A stretch of DNA of 63,651 bases from an uncultured Rhodobacterales bacterium (GTDB taxonomy: Bacteria; Pseudomonadota; Alphaproteobacteria; Rhodobacterales; Rhodobacteraceae), in NCBI GenBank assembly GCA_964448765.1, contig CAYUXM010000001.1, positions 1 to 63,651 on the forward strand. The letters are read 5' to 3'. Shown one piece after another: positions 23,148 to 37,593 of the stretch (the stretch's first letter is position 1; every line of letters starts with the position of its first letter). Position numbers and translations under genes: made by a program. The notes under the pieces are model-generated. The model was given only the letters and a program-made list of their open reading frames with translations. It was not told where the DNA came from and ran no database searches.

Positions 23148-25046
23148 ATGGCATACAATGACGTCTACGGCAGCTGGAAGGCGGATCCCGAAGGCTTCTG
23201 GATGCGGGCCGCGGAGGCGATAGACTGGGTCGCGAAACCCTCGCGCGCGCTGTTCGACGACAACGCGCCGCTATACGAATGGTTCGTCGACGGGCAGGTG
23301 AACACCTGCTGGAACGCCGTCGACCGGCATGTCGAGGCCGGCCACGGCGACCGGATCGCGATCATCCACGACAGCCCGGTGACGCACACCAAGCACGAGA
23401 TCACCTATGCCGAGTTGCGCGACCGGGTGGCCAGCCTGGCCGGCGCGCTGCGCGCCAAGGGGATCGGCAAGGGCGACCGGGTGATCATCTACATGCCGAT
23501 GGTGCCCGAGGCGCTGGAGGCGATGCTGGCCTGCGCCCGGCTCGGCGCGATCCATTCGGTCGTGTTCGGCGGGTTCGCGGCGCACGAGCTTGCGGTGCGG
23601 ATCGACGATGCGCAGCCCAAGGCGATCATCGCGGCCTCCTGCGGGATCGAGCCGGGCCGGGTGGTGCATTACAAGCCGCTGCTGGATGCCGCGATCGAGC
23701 AGGCCGCGCACAAGCCCGCGTTCTGCGTGATCTTCCAGCGCGAGCAGGAGGTCGCGCAGCTGACCGAGGGCCGCGATCATGACTGGCACGCCGTCCAATA
23801 CGGGGTGGCGCCGGCGGACTGCGTGCCGGTCGCGGGCAACCATCCCGCCTACATCCTTTACACCTCCGGCACCACCGGCCAGCCCAAGGGCGTGGTGCGC
23901 CCCACCGCCGGGCACCTCGTGGCGCTGAACTGGACGATGCGGGCGATCTACGATGTCGGCCCCGGCGACGTGTTCTGGGCGGCCTCGGATGTCGGCTGGG
24001 TCGTCGGCCACAGCTATATCTGCTACGCGCCGCTGATCGCCGGCTGCACCACGATCGTGTTCGAGGGCAAGCCCGTGGGTACCCCCGATGCCGGCACCTT
24101 CTGGCGGGTGATCGCCGAACACAAGGTGCGCAGCTTCTTCACCGCGCCCACCGCCTTCCGCGCGATCAAGCGCGAGGATCCCGAGGGCAAGCTGGTCAGG
24201 GATTACGACCTGTCGTCGCTGCGCGCGCTCTACCTCGCCGGCGAGCGGGCAGACCCGGACACGGTGAAATGGGCCGAGGCGCAACTGGGCGTGCCGGTGA
24301 TCGACCACTGGTGGCAGACCGAAACCGGCTGGGCGATCGCCGCCAACCCGCTCGGGATCGAGGAACTGCCGGTCAAGATCGGCTCTCCCTCCGTCGCGAT
24401 GCCCGGCTACGATGTGCAGGTGCTCGACGAGGGCGGCCACCCGGTGCCGGCCGGCACGCTCGGCGCCATCGCGGTCAAGCTGCCGCTGCCGCCGGGCACC
24501 CTGCCGGGGCTTTGGAATGCCGAGGCGCGGTTCCGCAAGTCCTACCTCGAACACTTCCCCGGCTATTACGAGACCGGCGACGCGGGTTACATCGACGAGG
24601 ACGGCTATCTCTACATCATGGCGCGCACCGATGACGTGATCAACGTCGCGGGCCACCGGCTGTCGACCGGCGGGATGGAAGAGGTTCTGGCCGGCCATCC
24701 CGATGTCGCCGAATGCGCCGTGATCGGTGTCACCGACGCGTTGAAGGGCCAGTTGCCGCTGGGCTTTTTGTGCCTCAACAAGGGCTGCAACCGGCCGCAT
24801 GACGACGTGGTGAAGGATTGCGTGCGGCTGGTGCGCGACCAGATCGGCCCGGTCGCGGCCTTCAAGCTCGCCGTCGTGGTCGATCGGCTGCCGAAGACCC
24901 GGTCGGGCAAGATCCTGCGCGGCACGATGGTCAAGATCGCCGATGGCGAGGCCTTCAAGATGCCCGCCACGATCGACGATCCCGCGATCCTCGACGAGAT
25001 CGCGGAGGCGCTGAAGGCGCTGGGCTATCCGGCCGCGGGCGGCTGA
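23148..25046 (+). CDS. prpE: Propionate--CoA ligase (acetyl/propionyl-CoA synthetase family)
   Basis: 632 aa. YGSWKADPEGFW...YTSGTTGQPKGV...WWQTETG...PKTRSGKILR. Confidence 0.8.
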   Translation: MAYNDVYGSWKADPEGFWMRAAEAIDWVAKPSRALFDDNAPLYEWFVDGQVNTCWNAVDRHVEAGHGDRIAIIHDSPVTHTKHEITYAELRDRVASLAGALRAKGIGKGDRVIIYMPMVPEALEAMLACARLGAIHSVVFGGFAAHELAVRIDDAQPKAIIAASCGIEPGRVVHYKPLLDAAIEQAAHKPAFCVIFQREQEVAQLTEGRDHDWHAVQYGVAPADCVPVAGNHPAYILYTSGTTGQPKGVVRPTAGHLVALNWTMRAIYDVGPGDVFWAASDVGWVVGHSYICYAPLIAGCTTIVFEGKPVGTPDAGTFWRVIAEHKVRSFFTAPTAFRAIKREDPEGKLVRDYDLSSLRALYLAGERADPDTVKWAEAQLGVPVIDHWWQTETGWAIAANPLGIEELPVKIGSPSVAMPGYDVQVLDEGGHPVPAGTLGAIAVKLPLPPGTLPGLWNAEARFRKSYLEHFPGYYETGDAGYIDEDGYLYIMARTDDVINVAGHRLSTGGMEEVLAGHPDVAECAVIGVTDALKGQLPLGFLCLNKGCNRPHDDVVKDCVRLVRDQIGPVAAFKLAVVVDRLPKTRSGKILRGTMVKIADGEAFKMPATIDDPAILDEIAEALKALGYPAAGG

Positions 25047-25199
25047 TCCCGTCGCCGGGGCGGCGGAGCAGGCGGCCTGTCCTTTCCGGCAGGTTGGCGA
25101 AATGCAAAGCCCGGCGTAGAACCTCCGCAAGATGCAACGCTTCCTTGCAGTTGGGCCGGGCGGCCGGGCCACGGGCGCGGCCATGCGGCGCGGGCGCGG

Positions 25200-26555
25200 A
25201 TGACGCGGCCCCGCGGCGCCTCGCATGACGACGCGGCGGCCCGCACGCGTGAGCTGCGCGCCGCGCTCGACGACATCGTCGAGGGGCTGCGCCTTGTCGA
25301 TGCCGCGGGGCTGGGCGAGGCCGCGCAGCGCCAGCTTGGCCGGGCGCTGGCGGCCAGCCGCGCGGCGCTGCGGCTGGTCGAGGCCGGCGGCACCGACGGG
25401 CCGGCGGACCTGATCGGCCTGCTGCGCGATCTGGAGGATCGCTGGGGCGGGCGCGCCGCGGCGCTGGACTCGACCCTGGCGCTGTCGGTCGCGCCGGACG
25501 TGCCGCGCTGGCTGCCGCTCGACCAGGTGACGCTGGAACGGCTCCTGTCCAATCTGCTGGCGCATGCGCTTGCCGGCGTGCAGGGCGGCAGCGTGCGGCT
25601 TGCCGTGGAACGCACCGCCGAGGCGCTTGTGTTCACCGTCGCGGATGACGGCGCGGTGCATCTCGATCGCGCCGGCAGCGAGGTGACCCTCGGTTTTGCC
25701 GAGGCGCTGGCCGCCGCGCTTGGCGGGCGGCTGGCGCTGCGGTCCGATCCGGCCGAAGGGCTGAGCGCGCGCCTTGCCCTGCCGCGCGGCGTCTGGGACC
25801 GGCCCGGTCCCGACGCGCGCGACGCGGGCGACCTGTCCGGTCTGACGCTGGCGCTTGTCGGCCTGCCGAGGGCGGAGGCCGCGGCGCTAGCCGATATCGT
25901 GGCCGGGCGGGGCGGCAGCGCCACCTGCCTGTCGCCCGACGCGGTCGCGGAGGCGCAAGCGGGGTCGATCCTCGTGCTCGACGCCGATGCCCCCGGCGCG
26001 GCCGACCTGCTGGCGGCAAGCCGGCACGGCCCGGCCGCGGTGGTGGCGGTGACCGGGGCGATCCTCGCGGTGCATCGTGCCGGGCTTGCCGATGCCGGGG
26101 CCGACGCGCTGCTCGCCCGGCCGCTGCCGGGCCCCGAAATCGTCGCCCGGACGCTGCGATCGGCCCTCGAGACGCGGCAGGCGGCCGACAACGCCGATCC
26201 CGGCCGGCTCGACCCGGCGCGGCTGGAGCGGCTGCTCGACCTCGCCGGGGCCGAGGTGGCCGGCGAGCTTCTGGACCGGCTGGTCGACGACCTCGGCACG
26301 GTGGCGCGTGGCATCGCGGCCGCCGCCCCGGATCGCGACGGCACCGCGCTCAGGGCCCATACCCATGTGCTGATCTCGCTGGCCGGCGCCGTCGGTGCAG
26401 AGCGGTTGCAGCGTCTGGCCGAGGCGCTCAACCTCGCGGCCCATGCCGGCGACGGCCCCGAGATCGACCGCCTCGGGGCGGAAACCACCGGCGAACTCGA
26501 CCGGCTGGTCGCGCTGGTCGAGGCCGTGCGCGCGCAGCGGGCGGCGGCGTCATGA
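25200..26555 (+). CDS. Soluble hybrid kinase-like protein: HATPase_c-like, receiver-like and HPt domains, several motifs degenerate
   Basis: No TM or sensor region. N-box-like LLSNLLAHAL, weak G-box DDGAV, receiver-like ILVLDAD...ADALLARPL, HPt-like LRAHTHVLISLAGAVGAERL. The stop overlaps the next gene's start (ATGA at 26552-26555). Confidence 0.6.
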   Translation: MTRPRGASHDDAAARTRELRAALDDIVEGLRLVDAAGLGEAAQRQLGRALAASRAALRLVEAGGTDGPADLIGLLRDLEDRWGGRAAALDSTLALSVAPDVPRWLPLDQVTLERLLSNLLAHALAGVQGGSVRLAVERTAEALVFTVADDGAVHLDRAGSEVTLGFAEALAAALGGRLALRSDPAEGLSARLALPRGVWDRPGPDARDAGDLSGLTLALVGLPRAEAAALADIVAGRGGSATCLSPDAVAEAQAGSILVLDADAPGAADLLAASRHGPAAVVAVTGAILAVHRAGLADAGADALLARPLPGPEIVARTLRSALETRQAADNADPGRLDPARLERLLDLAGAEVAGELLDRLVDDLGTVARGIAAAAPDRDGTALRAHTHVLISLAGAVGAERLQRLAEALNLAAHAGDGPEIDRLGAETTGELDRLVALVEAVRAQRAAAS

Positions 26556-27958
26556 CCGGTTGGCCGGAACTTTTGCTGGTCGAGGACACGCCGGCGCTGC
26601 AGATGGTCTACCGGGCCGTCCTGACGGGGGCGGGGCACCGGGTCCGCTGTGCCGGAACCGCCGACGAGGGGCTTGCCGCGTTCCGCGAAATGCGCCCGCC
26701 CGTGGTCCTGCTCGACCTGATGCTGCCGGATCGCGACGGGCTCGACCTGATGGGCGAGATGCTGGCGCTGCGCGCGGATGCCGCGGTGATCGTCATCACC
26801 GCCAACGGCTCGATCAACAAGGCGGTGGAGGCGATGCGCGCCGGGGCCTACGATTTCCTCGTCAAGCCCTTCGACGAGACCCGGTTCCTCAACGCGATCG
26901 AGAATGCGCTGGCCTCCGTCGCGCCCGAACCGCGACCCGGCGCGCGTGCCACGCCGGCGACCGCGCCGCCGGGCGAGTTCATCGGCACCTCGCCCCCGAT
27001 GCAGGCGGTCTACGCCAAGATCCGCTCGGTCGCGCGGTCGATGGCGACGGTGTTCATCACCGGCGAATCCGGCACCGGCAAGGAGCTTTGCGCGCAGGCG
27101 GTGCATGAACTGTCGAACCGGGCGCGGGGCCCGTTCATCGCGCTGAACTGCGGTGCGATCCCCTCGGAACTTCTGGAGTCGGAGGTCTTCGGCCATCTCA
27201 AGGGCTCGTTCACCGGGGCGATTTCCGACAAGACCGGGGCGGCGGCGGCGGCCGATGGCGGCACCCTGTTTCTTGACGAGATCTGCGAGCTGGACCCGAA
27301 CCTGCAGACCAAGCTGCTGCGTTTCCTGCAAACCTCCACGATCCAGCCGGTCGGCGCCACGCGGCCGCGCAAGGTCAATGTCCGCATCGTCTGCGCCACA
27401 AATCGCGACCCGCTGGACGCCGTGCGCCGTGGCCGGTTCCGCGAGGATCTCTACTACCGGCTGCACGTGATCCCGATCCCGATGCCGCCGTTGCGGGAGC
27501 GGGGCGGGGATATCCTGGCCATCGCGCAGGCGGCGCTGGCCCGCTGTTCGGCCGAGGAAGGGCGGCGGTTCCGCGCCTTCGACCCGGCGGTGGAGGCGCA
27601 GATGCTGCGCCTGCCCTGGCCGGGCAACGTGCGCCAGCTGCTCAACGTGATCCGCAACGTCGTGGTGCTGAACGACGGCGACAGGGTGACGCTGCCGATG
27701 CTGCCGATCGACCTGCATCACGAGATCGAGCGGGTGGAAACCGCGCCGGCCGGGCCGGCCGCGAACGACCGGCCCGAGATCGCGCTCGACGGGCTGATCG
27801 GCCGGCCGCTGGCCGAGATCGAGCGGCTGGTGATCGAGGAGACGATCGCGCGGCACGGCGGATCGGTGCCGAAGGCGGCGCGGGCGCTCGACATCGCGCC
27901 CTCCACGATCTACCGCAAGATCGAGGGCTGGGCGCGCAAGGACGGCGCGTCCGGCTGA
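26552..27958 (+). CDS. Sigma-54-dependent response regulator, LuxO-like
   Basis: Receiver VVLLDLMLPDRDG...FLVKPFD. AAA+ GESGTGKE. GSFTGA loop. FLQTSTIQPVG...FREDLYYRL. C-terminal Fis-type HTH AARALDIAPSTIYRKI. Confidence 0.88.
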   Translation: MTGWPELLLVEDTPALQMVYRAVLTGAGHRVRCAGTADEGLAAFREMRPPVVLLDLMLPDRDGLDLMGEMLALRADAAVIVITANGSINKAVEAMRAGAYDFLVKPFDETRFLNAIENALASVAPEPRPGARATPATAPPGEFIGTSPPMQAVYAKIRSVARSMATVFITGESGTGKELCAQAVHELSNRARGPFIALNCGAIPSELLESEVFGHLKGSFTGAISDKTGAAAAADGGTLFLDEICELDPNLQTKLLRFLQTSTIQPVGATRPRKVNVRIVCATNRDPLDAVRRGRFREDLYYRLHVIPIPMPPLRERGGDILAIAQAALARCSAEEGRRFRAFDPAVEAQMLRLPWPGNVRQLLNVIRNVVVLNDGDRVTLPMLPIDLHHEIERVETAPAGPAANDRPEIALDGLIGRPLAEIERLVIEETIARHGGSVPKAARALDIAPSTIYRKIEGWARKDGASG

Positions 27959-27963
27959 GCCGG

Positions 27964-28728
27964 TCAGACGAACTGTTCGCGGATCAGCCGTTCCTCGAGC
28001 CCGTGGCCGGGATCGAACAGGATCCGGTGCGCGACCGCGGGTTCGGAGCGGATTTCCACCCACAGCACCTCGCGCACCGACCGGCTGTCGGCATCGGCCA
28101 TCACCGGGCGCTTGTCGGCCTCCAGCACGTCGAACCGCACCAGCGCGGTCTTCGGCAGCAGCGCGCCGCGCCAGCGCCGGGGCCGGAACGCCGCCATCGC
28201 GGTCAGCGCCAGCACGTCCGAGCCGATCGGCAGGATCGGGCCGTGGGCGGAATAGTTGTAGGCCGTCGATCCGGCCGGGGTGGAGACCAGCGCGCCGTCG
28301 CAGACCAGTTCCTCCAGCCGCACCTTGCCATCGACGCTGATCCTGAGCTTCGCGGCCTGCGGGCCGGCGCGCAGCAGGCTCACCTCGTTGATCGCCAGCG
28401 CCTCGTGCACCCGGTCCTTCGTGTCGCCGGCGCGCATCGCCAGCGGGTTGATCACCGCCTCTTCGGCCGCGGCCAGCCGTTCGGTCAGGCCGCCCTCGGC
28501 ATATTCGTTCATCAGGAAGCCGATGGTGCCGCAGTTCATCCCGTAGACCGGCTGCGGCAGCGCCTGGGTGGCATGCAGCGTGTGCAGCATGAACCCGTCG
28601 CCGCCCAGCGCCACGATCACCTCGGCGCGTTCGCGCGGGGCCTGCCCGTAGCGCGCGGTCAGCCGCGCCAGCGCCGCCTGCGCGACCTCACTGTCGCTGG
28701 CGCTGAAATGGATCGGCCCGTCGCTCAT
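27964..28728 (-). CDS. nadK: NAD kinase
   Basis: [11 protein letters not shown]...NCGTIGFL...[17 protein letters not shown]. Starts MSDGP at 28728. Confidence 0.9.
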
Positions 28729-36178: not shown

Positions 36179-36889
36179 ATGCGCAAATCGGGTGACGAGG
36201 TGCCGGGCTGGCGGCCGCCGCCACGGCCGGAGGCGGTGGCGATCGAGGGGCAATACGCGCGGCTGGAACCGCTGGCGCAGGCCCATGCGGCGGGGCTGCA
36301 TGCCGCCTATGCCGGTGCGGATGCGCTGTGGGACTATCTGCCCTACGGCCCGCATGCCGATCCGGCCGCGCAGGCGGCCTGGGTGGCGGATTGGGCCGGG
36401 CGCGACGATCCGGTGTTCTTCGCGATCCGCGACCGGGATGCCGGGGGGCGGATCGGCGGCGTGGCGAGCTTTCTGCGGATCCAGCCGGAGGCCGGGTCGA
36501 TCGAGGTCGGCCATATCAATTTCGGCCCGGCCCTGCAGGGCAGCCGCGCCGCGACCGAGGCGATGGCGCTGATGATGGGCCATGCCTTCGCGCTGGGCTA
36601 TCGCCGCTACGAGTGGAAATGCGACGCGCTGAACCTGGCCTCGCGGCGCGCCGCGGCGCGGCTGGGGCTGAGTTACGAGGGCGTGTTTCGGCAGGCCGCG
36701 GTGGTCAAGGGACGCAACCGCGACACTGCCTGGTTCGCCGCGATCGACCGGGAATGGCCGGCGCTGTCGGCGGCGTTCGAGGCCTGGCTCGATCCGGGGA
36801 ATTTCGATGCCGCCGGCCGGCAGAGGCGGCGGCTGTCCGACCTGACGCGCCCGATCCTTGCAGCGCGCGATCCGGTGCCGGCGGGCTAG
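36179..36889 (+). CDS. GNAT family N-acetyltransferase
   Basis: RIGGVASFLRIQPEAGSIEVGHINF...QGSRAATEAMALMMGHAF..GYRRYEWKCDALN. Confidence 0.85.
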   Translation: MRKSGDEVPGWRPPPRPEAVAIEGQYARLEPLAQAHAAGLHAAYAGADALWDYLPYGPHADPAAQAAWVADWAGRDDPVFFAIRDRDAGGRIGGVASFLRIQPEAGSIEVGHINFGPALQGSRAATEAMALMMGHAFALGYRRYEWKCDALNLASRRAAARLGLSYEGVFRQAAVVKGRNRDTAWFAAIDREWPALSAAFEAWLDPGNFDAAGRQRRRLSDLTRPILAARDPVPAG

Positions 36890-37593
36890 AACCGGGTTCC
36901 GCTGGCGAGGCGATCATGCACCATGCCGGCGAGCCGCGTCACCTCGGGTGCGGCGGCGCGGTCGCGGACCACGGCGCGGGCGGCATCCTCCAGCGCGCCG
37001 TCATGCGCCGAAAGCGCGACGCCGGAGAGGAACTGCGCGGCATAGGCGACGCGGCTGGCGTCGCCGGGCTCGGCGAGGAGGCCGGCGGCTTCCTTCAGAT
37101 CGTCCTGCAGGGCCAGCGGATCGGGGCGGATCGTTTCGTCATGGACGGCGCGCAGGCCGAAGGGCCGGGCCTCGGCCGGCAGGGCGCGCAGCACCACGCC
37201 CTGGAAGGCCGCGAGGCTCTCGATCGGTTTCTCGAGGAAGTCGTCGGCCCCGGCCGCTAGCGCCGCATCGCGCAGCTCGCTGCTGCCCGAGGTGCCGAGG
37301 ATCACCGGCACCCGCGGCACCGCGCGGGCGAGATCGGCGATCAGGTCGAGCCCGCTGCCGTCGGGCAGGCCGAGATCGACGACGATCACCGCGGGCCGGT
37401 AGGTCGCGAGATGGCGGCGGGCGGAGCGCAGGCAATCGGCCCGCCGGATCCGGGCGCCGGAGCGCAGGCACAAAAGCCGCATCGCCTCGCAGGCGAAGCG
37501 GCTGTCCTCCACGACGAGCACGGTGAGGCCCTGCAGCGGCCGGTGTCCCGATGCGGGCCGCAGGGCGATGAAGTCGTTCAGGTCGTCGGTCAT
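36886..37593 (-). CDS. Response regulator receiver protein with uncharacterised C-terminal domain
   Basis: LTVLVVEDS...VIVVDLGLPDGSG...DDFLEKP, followed by about 100 aa with no recognisable output domain. Confidence 0.8.
   Translation of the reverse strand: MTDDLNDFIALRPASGHRPLQGLTVLVVEDSRFACEAMRLLCLRSGARIRRADCLRSARRHLATYRPAVIVVDLGLPDGSGLDLIADLARAVPRVPVILGTSGSSELRDAALAAGADDFLEKPIESLAAFQGVVLRALPAEARPFGLRAVHDETIRPDPLALQDDLKEAAGLLAEPGDASRVAYAAQFLSGVALSAHDGALEDAARAVVRDRAAAPEVTRLAGMVHDRLASGTRF

Follow-up and report, generated by a model that had tools for sequence, protein, structure and literature searches.

A degenerate, sensor-less hybrid kinase with a conserved HPt domain, overlapping a LuxO-family sigma-54 activator gene of Rhodobacteraceae, and its likely connection to xrpA

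A degenerate hybrid kinase and a LuxO-family activator encoded by overlapping genes

The 63,651-nt stretch of DNA analyzed here (contig CAYUXM010000001.1, positions 1 to 63,651; called the window below; G+C content of about 70%) comes from a metagenome-assembled genome (MAG) of the Rhodobacteraceae/Paracoccaceae that comprises 3.3 Mb in 443 contigs, is 83% complete, and is referred to as G000. Its plus strand carries two overlapping genes that are the subject of this work. ORF1 (positions 25200 to 26555) encodes a 451-aa protein that appears to consist of a pseudo-kinase, a pseudo-receiver, and a histidine phosphotransfer (HPt) domain, and ORF2 (26552 to 27958) encodes a 468-aa sigma-54 enhancer-binding protein of the LuxO family, probably of the AprX type. 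The start codon of ORF2 lies on the stop codon of ORF1 in an ATGA overlap (26552 to 26555, plus strand; GTCATGACC), which suggests translational coupling. An earlier reading of the DNA letters without database searches (the sequence-only reading) had described a sensor-less, degenerate kinase-receiver-HPt protein translationally coupled to a LuxO-like activator; Pfam matches, AlphaFold2 modeling, alignments, and the ATGA overlap all bear this description out.

The AlphaFold2 model of ORF1, built on an alignment of 44 sequences (mean pLDDT, 87.9), shows four units: a DHp hairpin, a CA domain, a receiver fold, and an HPt bundle. In a Foldseek search with this model, the hybrid kinase ShkA was the top match, followed by RetS, GacS, and DivL, and the matches to ShkA, RetS, GacS, CpxA, and HK853 had E values of 1e-12 to 1e-6. 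A PDB profile search with the ORF1 family agrees with Foldseek in placing ShkA first. At the level of Pfam, ORF1 shows an HATPase_c match at aa 108 to 196 (E value of 3e-5; 24.7 bits, under the cut-off of 26.4) and no HisKA or Response_reg match. No transmembrane helix was found in ORF1, the peak of 19-residue hydropathy being 1.7 and located inside the receiver fold, and only about eight residues precede the DHp unit; therefore, there is no room for a sensor. The absence of a membrane or sensory domain from the 451-aa protein, as read from the letters, is thereby upheld.

The kinase part seems to have kept its fold and lost its chemistry. The DHp-like helical hairpin (25224 to 25382, plus strand; aa 9 to 61) has modeled helices at aa 9 to 31 and 40 to 61. 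At the position of the H-box His stands Arg17 (codon 25248 to 25250), in a stretch, TRELRAAL, that aligns to the canonical GHDLRAAVSD, and the H-box His is absent from all seven members of the degenerate clade described below. The sequence-only reading was right that no canonical H-box exists, and wrong in offering the His of ASHDDAAART (His8) as a remnant of it: even the closest relative does not share His8, and it is TRELRAAL that aligns at the H-box. The CA (HATPase_c-like) fold (25410 to 25796, plus strand; aa 71 to 199) is kept according to AlphaFold2 and Foldseek, and its ATP-binding motifs appear to be gone. In the alignment with 80 relatives, His122 replaces the Mg-binding Asn of the N-box, an 18-residue deletion after D149-x-G151 takes out the rest of the G1 box together with the ATP lid, and the G2 box is lost. 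The G-boxes that had looked weak by eye are thus weak indeed.

The third unit, a pseudo-receiver (25845 to 26192, plus strand; aa 216 to 331), is predicted to adopt the (beta-alpha)5 fold, and this region of ORF1 is homologous to the Pfam-positive receivers of canonical relatives, in line with the receiver-like block noted earlier. G221 and L222 replace the Glu-Asp acidic pair, and Arg307 replaces the conserved Lys, as had also been noticed. D261 is present in ORF1 and is not conserved in the clade, being replaced in the relatives P0005 and P0006.

The C-terminal HPt domain (26214 to 26549, plus strand; aa 339 to 450), modeled as a helical bundle, is different. Pfam Hpt matches ORF1 at aa 356 to 443 with an E value of 7e-5 and 23.5 bits in a scan of the whole protein, and the same stretch scores 28 bits, above the cut-off, in the genome search; the HPt-like helix of the sequence-only reading is therefore an HPt domain. 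The phospho-acceptor position is His389 (codon 26364 to 26366), which lies within THVLISLAGAVGA. His389 is invariant in alignments of 44 and of 91 sequences, and the HPt motif is unchanged throughout. In the family HPt profile, His389 is aligned to the phospho-acceptor His of ArcB, located in the HxxKG motif of its HPt domain; the profile also matches the HPt chain 7c1i. LuxU was considered as the closest HPt relative and rejected (NCBIfam NF041948, 13.4 bits versus a cut-off of 140; no LuxU chain in the PDB at E values up to 10). Taken together, alignment and model confirm for ORF1 a predicted DHp-CA-REC-HPt architecture that has no membrane or sensor part and in which the kinase His, the ATP boxes, and the receiver pocket are gone. 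With kinase and receiver apparently catalytically dead, only the HPt domain can “feed” the activator here.

ORF2 has retained what an activator of this type needs in terms of motifs. It is composed of a receiver (26573 to 26902, with the codon of Asp55 at 26714 to 26716), an AAA+ domain (26981 to 27478, with the GSFTGA loop at 27203 to 27220), and a Pfam HTH_8 domain (27809 to 27925), all on the plus strand. Pfam identifies Response_reg, Sigma54_activat (226 bits), AAA_lid_14, and HTH_8 (41 bits), and D55, K105, Walker A GESGTGKE, Walker B LFLDEI, GSFTGA, and the Arg-finger motif FREDLYYRL are all kept. Among 116 NCBIfam families, the Vibrio equivalog LuxO (NF041946) is the best match, with 531 bits over the full length compared with 382 for NtrC; since this score is below the LuxO equivalog cut-off of 800, LuxO is the closest family of ORF2, and ORF2 is not a LuxO equivalog. 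The best PDB match is LuxO of Photobacterium angustum (5ep0), with 407 bits collinear over aa 6 to 388, followed by NtrC1 with 287 bits. The assignment of ORF2 to LuxO-like activators of the NtrC family, made earlier from motifs, is supported by both searches, and close homologs of ORF2 are already named LuxO in some public records. LuxO-like activators with 49 to 52% identity to ORF2 were also seen in other alphaproteobacterial families (G039, G031, and G033); in G039, the gene shares a contig with an XRE homolog.

The sigma-54 gene rpoN, whose presence the sequence-only reading had made a point to be checked, exists in G000 on another contig. Among the enhancer-binding proteins of G000, a GAFTGA-type loop is found only in ORF2 (GSFTGA) and in a DctD-like protein on contig C82 (GAFAGA). 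NtrC, NtrX, and two further NtrC-family proteins (contigs C68, C99, and C278) do not have a GAFTGA-type loop and are therefore probably sigma-54 independent.

Relatives of the gene pair and the decay of the kinase

A search of the protein collection revealed two classes of ORF1 relatives: proteins of about 450 aa with 48 to 75% identity to ORF1 and no or almost no Pfam matches, and proteins of about 500 aa with 33 to 36% identity in which HATPase_c and Response_reg are present. A scan of species genomes yielded 80 loci, labeled Rhodobacteraceae, Paracoccaceae, or simply Alphaproteobacteria and including the genera Albidovulum, Defluviimonas, Frigidibacter, Dinoroseobacter, Actibacterium, Rhodovulum, Gemmobacter, and Nioella. 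That the two genes belong together, as the sequence-only reading supposed, is supported by 74 of these 80 loci, where the activator gene lies directly 3' of the ORF1 homolog. In the window, the pair is preceded by genes for malic enzyme (maeB) and a propionyl/acetyl-CoA synthetase-like protein (prpE) and followed by those for NAD kinase (nadK, minus strand) and GlyA. The order maeB-prpE-ORF1-ORF2-nadK-glyA is syntenic across Rhodobacteraceae relatives; therefore, the pair is an old chromosomal resident and not part of an island.

The six unpaired loci, at which no activator gene adjoins the ORF1 homolog, belong to Nioella in five cases (L069, L072, L075, L078, and L084) and to one other organism (L137). 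Nioella species have kept a canonical HK-REC-HPt gene after prpE, and the kinase may have another receiver there.

In 78 of the 80 loci, the ORF1 homolog keeps every catalytic motif, namely, the H-box GHDLRAAVSD, the N-box LSNxLSNAxKYT, G1 DxGPGF, and G2 GxGLGxH of the kinase, AEDNxTN, DIEMP, TAY, and KP of the receiver, and THVLIxLAGAVGA of the HPt domain. The window ORF1 and its six or seven closest relatives deviate at each kinase and receiver motif, with the HPt motif unchanged. A tree for which the root was set by other hybrid kinases from the same genome groups the degenerate proteins in a single clade with a support of 1.0 and a long stem. Decay has gone only part of the way in the sister of this clade, the Paracoccaceae MAG locus L091, which has a G1 deletion, Ser for the N-box Asn, and no acidic pair but still possesses the H-box His together with the Asp and Lys of the receiver.

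The degenerate gene shows signs of being maintained. Its frame is intact in at least eight clade members with 48 to 75% identity. The 4-nt overlap with the activator gene (468 aa in the degenerate clade) recurs in other members of the clade, at a majority of the 74 paired loci, and at the HPt-only loci described below. Between the window and a sister species, ORF1 is 75% and ORF2 92% identical, with ratios of nonsynonymous to synonymous substitution rates (dN/dS) of 0.32 and 0.12, respectively. By domain, the dN/dS ratio of ORF1 is 0.29 for DHp, 0.44 for CA, 0.31 for REC, and 0.23, the lowest value, for HPt. As judged from these sequence comparisons, ORF1 is not a pseudogene, and the window clade is a single, old, still-selected degenerate offshoot of a canonical family of hybrid kinases.

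We also counted in the reverse direction, from the activator. With an activator ortholog defined by an E value of at most 1e-140, 45 genera out of 201 sampled from the family are positive. Directly 5' of the activator gene, 23 of these 45 have a full-length ORF1-type gene and 5 have a shorter gene matching only REC-HPt; in two such genomes (G018 and G004), the receivers of the REC-HPt proteins are fully canonical. The remaining 17 show no ORF1-type match above the listing threshold. Two loci of this last type were read at the sequence level. In a Cereibacter sp. MAG, a 199-aa ORF without Pfam matches overlaps the activator start by 4 nt. The family HPt profile finds this ORF with an E value of 4e-39, and the N-terminal third of the protein resembles a DHp stub in which Arg takes the place of the His. 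A 130-aa HPt-only ORF occupies the same place in Paragemmobacter straminiformis (E value of 2e-24), and the 4-nt overlap is kept.

Thus, depending on the lineage, one locus encodes a complete relay kinase, a kinase whose ATP site is dead, a dead kinase-receiver with an HPt domain, REC-HPt, stub-HPt, or HPt alone. On the sequence evidence, the constants of this reduction series are the HPt domain, its His, and the coupling to the activator.

The xrpA gene as the likely target of the activator

In alphaproteobacteria, motility and gene-transfer agents are under the master regulator CtrA, which in some species also governs the cell cycle. In Cereibacter sphaeroides, the XRE-family protein XrpA represses ctrA and chpT, and xrpA requires RpoN3 together with the enhancer-binding protein AprX, which is built as a REC-AAA+ (GAFTGA/GSFTGA)-HTH protein (Vega-Baray et al. 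2025, PLoS One, PMC11999139). In that organism, xrpA is accompanied by a divergent NADPH:quinone oxidoreductase gene and a downstream hisN paralog, no histidine kinase gene lies near aprX, and the authors left the input to AprX open (PMC11999139). LuxO, HPt domains, and enhancer sites are not mentioned in that work.

In the flanks of the ORF1-ORF2 pair, no sigma-54 promoter was found within 10 kb, in agreement with the sequence-only reading; the sole matches in the window are weak and lie at about 40.5 to 40.8 kb. Likewise, neither Qrr nor any other Rfam family was found near the pair, where only two subthreshold chance matches occur. The genome-wide view suggested in that reading was more productive. 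In a weighted scan of all of G000 for TGGCACG-N4-TTGCW, the only perfect sigma-54 site is on contig C53, where it precedes the start codon of an XRE-family gene (xrpA; 120 aa) by 48 nt, with a GGAGGA ribosome site in between. A divergent quinone-oxidoreductase-like gene and a downstream IMPase/hisN paralog surround the gene on C53. An ortholog of the XRE gene is present in nearly all family genomes, and a good -24/-12 element is found at this ortholog in all six family genomes with an ORF2 ortholog and in none of the 13 without one. More-distant XRE paralogs in G024 and G021 have weaker promoter-like sites.

Upstream of the promoter, tandem TTGCA-N3-TGCAA boxes lie about 150 to 200 bp from the xrpA -24/-12 element in 10 of 10 activator-positive genomes, i.e., the six family genomes and representatives of four genera checked afterwards (Frigidibacter, Albidovulum, Dinoroseobacter, and Rhodovulum). 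TTGCA-N3-TGCAA is the LuxO consensus of Lenz et al. 2004 as quoted in PMC3352281. Several of the xrpA boxes are identical to LuxO sites at qrr1 and qrr3 of Vibrio cholerae, which were located by ChIP-seq (PMC10328515). At xrpA of Nioella sediminis, neither a sigma-54 promoter nor LuxO boxes were found. At locus L106 (G020), a perfect LuxO box (TTGCAAAATGCAA) and an adjacent near-perfect box lie about 200 nt upstream of the xrpA ortholog, the -24/-12 spacing is 2 nt short, and no ORF2 ortholog exists (the best enhancer-binding protein match is 43% identical). It seems that G020 has lost the activator recently, a case similar to the Phaeovulum exception of PMC11999139.

The likely target of ORF2 is thus a gene on another contig, xrpA, with a predicted LuxO-type enhancer, and the output is most likely not a Qrr-type small RNA but the sigma-54 promoter of xrpA. 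Several features connect ORF2 with AprX. The promoter string at xrpA of Defluviimonas denitrificans (G010) is identical to that in the table of PMC11999139, and D. denitrificans and Albidovulum inexpectatum of that table are among our paired loci. Three other genera of the table, Dinoroseobacter, Actibacterium, and Rhodovulum, are represented among the paired loci by other species or strains. The activator of the Cereibacter sp. MAG is 72% identical to ORF2 and has the same maeB-prpE context. From the shared xrpA context, the species table, and the promoter string, we infer that ORF2 is the counterpart of AprX.

A proposed phosphorelay into AprX-type control

Our preferred interpretation, to which we assign a probability of about 0.62, is that XrpA is under the control of a phosphorelay of the LuxU/LuxO style, with ORF1 and ORF2 as its input end and the HPt domain fed in trans. 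The ancestor of ORF1 would be a soluble hybrid kinase without a sensor (DHp-CA-REC-HPt), a protein that most Rhodobacteraceae have in its canonical form. In the lineage of the window, ATP binding, autophosphorylation, and phosphoryl transfer to the receiver of the protein itself would be lost, and the C-terminal HPt domain would stay active. (i) His389 would be phosphorylated in trans by one or more of the hybrid kinases of G000 that have no HPt domain of their own. (ii) The phosphoryl group would pass from His389 to Asp55 of the cotranslated ORF2. (iii) Phosphorylated ORF2 would bind the tandem TTGCA-N3-TGCAA boxes about 150 to 200 bp upstream of the xrpA -24/-12 element on C53. (iv) ORF2 and sigma-54 would switch on xrpA, and XrpA would repress ctrA and chpT, as in C. 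sphaeroides. Because the dead DHp-CA-REC part is under selection, it probably still dimerizes or docks partners and would serve as a dimerizing or docking scaffold.

Candidate donors exist in G000, which encodes five hybrid kinases of the DHp-CA-REC type without an HPt domain (contigs C110, C96, C135, C51, and C234). Besides one hybrid kinase with an HPt domain of its own (contig C37) and a CheA-like protein, G000 also encodes an HPt protein that stands alone (about 125 aa; C168, positions 235 to 429; Pfam Hpt, 31 bits), a second possible phosphotransfer hub. In related genomes, each of the 25 in which the ORF1-type gene is reduced or degenerate has at least one other hybrid kinase matching the family profile, and, among the matches listed, none was found in 9 of 21 canonical genomes.

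Several points weigh against this proposal. Each phosphotransfer step, the donors in trans, the scaffold role, and the direction of control (phosphorylation activating rather than inhibiting ORF2) are what we infer from domain content and genome context. The role of ORF1 as a hub would not be exclusive, given the stand-alone HPt protein and the C37 kinase. The trend in hybrid kinases, drawn from related genomes and from the matches listed, is suggestive and not a test. The orthology of ORF2 to AprX itself (RSWS8N_13400) runs through species lists, promoter strings, synteny, and the Cereibacter sp. MAG as a proxy. In G000 and its sister species G001, the boxes at xrpA each have two mismatches and are recognized by homologous position and conservation, and the number of LuxO boxes with at most one mismatch in the whole of G000 is at chance level (17 found versus 23 expected). 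Finally, phosphorylation-independent control of AprX is possible according to the authors of PMC11999139.

There are three other explanations for the gene pair. The first is that ORF1 is a contact regulator whose dead DHp-CA part pairs with or blocks another kinase, as RetS does with GacS or as in the case of DivL, or holds ORF2 inactive, the HPt domain being secondary. RetS, GacS, and DivL are among the best Foldseek matches, and the purifying selection on the dead domains shows that these are kept for some function. However, the structural matches reflect the generic kinase fold, and what has been retained in independent reductions is the HPt domain and not DHp-CA. We consider this explanation rather unlikely as the principal role of ORF1; it is compatible with the proposed relay as an added layer.

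An improbable alternative is that ORF1 is a functionless, decaying relic and that ORF2 is controlled in another way, for example, by another kinase directed at Asp55 or by acetyl phosphate, a ligand, or a partner protein. The loss of all catalytic residues from the kinase and the receiver would fit a relic, as would the much faster evolution of ORF1 than of ORF2 at both the identity and the dN/dS level, and phosphorylation-independent control has been considered possible for AprX (PMC11999139). Yet a relic would hardly have an open frame in at least eight sequences that have diverged to about 50% identity, a dN/dS ratio well below 1 in each domain, and an invariant HPt motif. The 4-nt coupling has been kept even where the protein is down to 130 aa, and independent reductions of a relic would not retain precisely the HPt domain.

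The third explanation, autophosphorylation of ORF1 through noncanonical residues such as His8, His122, or His387 in a complete but divergent relay without an outside kinase, draws on the confidently preserved DHp-CA fold and on the histidines near the N terminus and in the N-box, and is very improbable in view of the 18-residue deletion of G1 and the ATP lid, the loss of the Mg-binding Asn and G2, the lack of His8 in P0002, which is the closest relative, and in the other clade members, and a receiver without the acidic pair and Lys, in which the internal His-to-Asp step would also be broken.

The proposed relay can be extended, more tentatively, to the family as a whole. Across the Paracoccaceae, the gene 5' of aprX might be a functional equivalent of LuxU, an HPt hub joining orphan hybrid kinases to a LuxO-family activator. 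An integrator of the Vibrio type would then be old and widespread in alphaproteobacteria, the role of the Qrr small RNAs being taken by XrpA through its action on ctrA and chpT, and in the lineage of the window, a pseudokinase-pseudoreceiver scaffold would gate the outside kinases. We regard this broader scheme as possible and would give it somewhat less than even odds.

The module of activator and target is known already (PMC11999139). What our analysis adds is (i) the dead-kinase variant and its evolutionary position, (ii) the HPt-bearing gene as a constant partner of aprX, including in Cereibacter, and (iii) the putative LuxO-type enhancer at xrpA. The HPt-bearing partner and the LuxO-type enhancer therefore offer a concrete, testable answer to the question of the AprX input, with a gene (HPt bearing and overlapping aprX), a residue (the HPt His), DNA sites (the LuxO boxes), and candidate donor kinases. 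The locus also shows a hybrid kinase that nature has taken apart step by step, with the phosphotransfer domain as the one part that appears to be indispensable, and as such it is useful for studying how phosphorelays are rewired from input in cis to input in trans.

The intergenic region and another regulator in the window

The intergenic region between prpE and ORF1 contains several elements that might control the pair. A CCTG...CAGG hairpin (25076 to 25093) is followed directly by a promoter-like element, TTGGCG-N16-GTAGAA (25094 to 25121, plus strand), which was read from the sequence and whose function is putative. The corresponding pattern, TTGRCR-N15-19-GTANAM, occurs in 23 of the 74 orthologous intergenic regions, and the alignment consensus is conserved; a generic scan of positions 24900 to 28200 for sigma-70 promoters and terminators gave no match, including at this element. 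A conserved ATGCAAC...TTGCA element (25125 to 25149, plus strand) overlaps a LuxO-like box (CCGCAAGATGCAA) with two mismatches, and a second LuxO-like box, also with two mismatches, is found at 25095 to 25107. In 22 of the 74 loci, the distance from the promoter-like element to ATGCAAC is exactly 10 nt. LuxO boxes with at most one mismatch were found in this intergenic region at 8 of 73 loci, compared with 0.4 expected from shuffled sequences. Judging from these patterns, the arrangement may represent an operon promoter with an autoregulatory operator, such as luxO has in Vibrio.

Elsewhere in the window, an orphan response regulator is encoded on the minus strand (36889 to 37593). Its only Pfam match is Response_reg at aa 25 to 125, and the C-terminal 110 residues or so have no family match.

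Comparison with known systems

The closest known counterpart is the AprX module of C. sphaeroides. Both systems have a REC-AAA+ (GSFTGA)-HTH activator, an xrpA target in the same context with the same -24/-12 promoter, and a co-occurrence of activator and promoter across the Paracoccaceae. They differ in that, here, an HPt-bearing gene lies directly 5' of the activator gene in every form examined, that a putative LuxO-type enhancer is found, and that the partner in this window is a dead kinase.

With ArcB, BarA, and TorS, the ancestral family of ORF1 shares the order DHp-CA-REC-HPt, weak NCBIfam matches, and an HPt profile that aligns with the HPt domain of ArcB. In contrast to these kinases, the family has no transmembrane or PAS input, its partner is a sigma-54 activator and not one of the OmpR or NarL type, and in the window protein only the HPt domain is predicted to be competent. 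ShkA (6qrj), RetS, and DivL are similar as soluble DHp-CA(-REC) proteins without a membrane sensor, ShkA being the best match in both sequence and structure. The canonical phospho-acceptor His is missing from DivL, and the main action of RetS is to bind another kinase. These two proteins provide examples of a kinase fold that signals with no autokinase chemistry of its own. However, none of the three has a C-terminal HPt domain coupled to a sigma-54 activator, and the likeness is that of a generic fold (TM-scores of 0.25 to 0.5).

The phosphorelay of LuxU and LuxO is a textbook case, and the LuxU-LuxO-Qrr quorum-sensing system of the Vibrionaceae is the one whose logic the present locus would follow. 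In both, an HPt protein is encoded beside, and presumably feeds, a REC-AAA+-HTH activator of sigma-54. LuxO is the best family model and the best solved relative of ORF2, and the TTGCA-N3-TGCAA boxes are shared. The reduced forms of the ORF1 family resemble LuxU also in that they would have to take their input from hybrid kinases in trans. There are several differences. In Vibrio, luxO precedes luxU, whereas here the HPt gene precedes the activator gene. The HPt domain is not of the LuxU family, ORF2 falls below the LuxO equivalog cut-off, and the ancestral form is a fused HK-REC-HPt protein. The predicted output is a protein repressor gene, xrpA, in the place that Qrr small RNAs hold in Vibrio. 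If the proposed relay is correct, the logic of LuxU and LuxO extends well beyond the Vibrionaceae.

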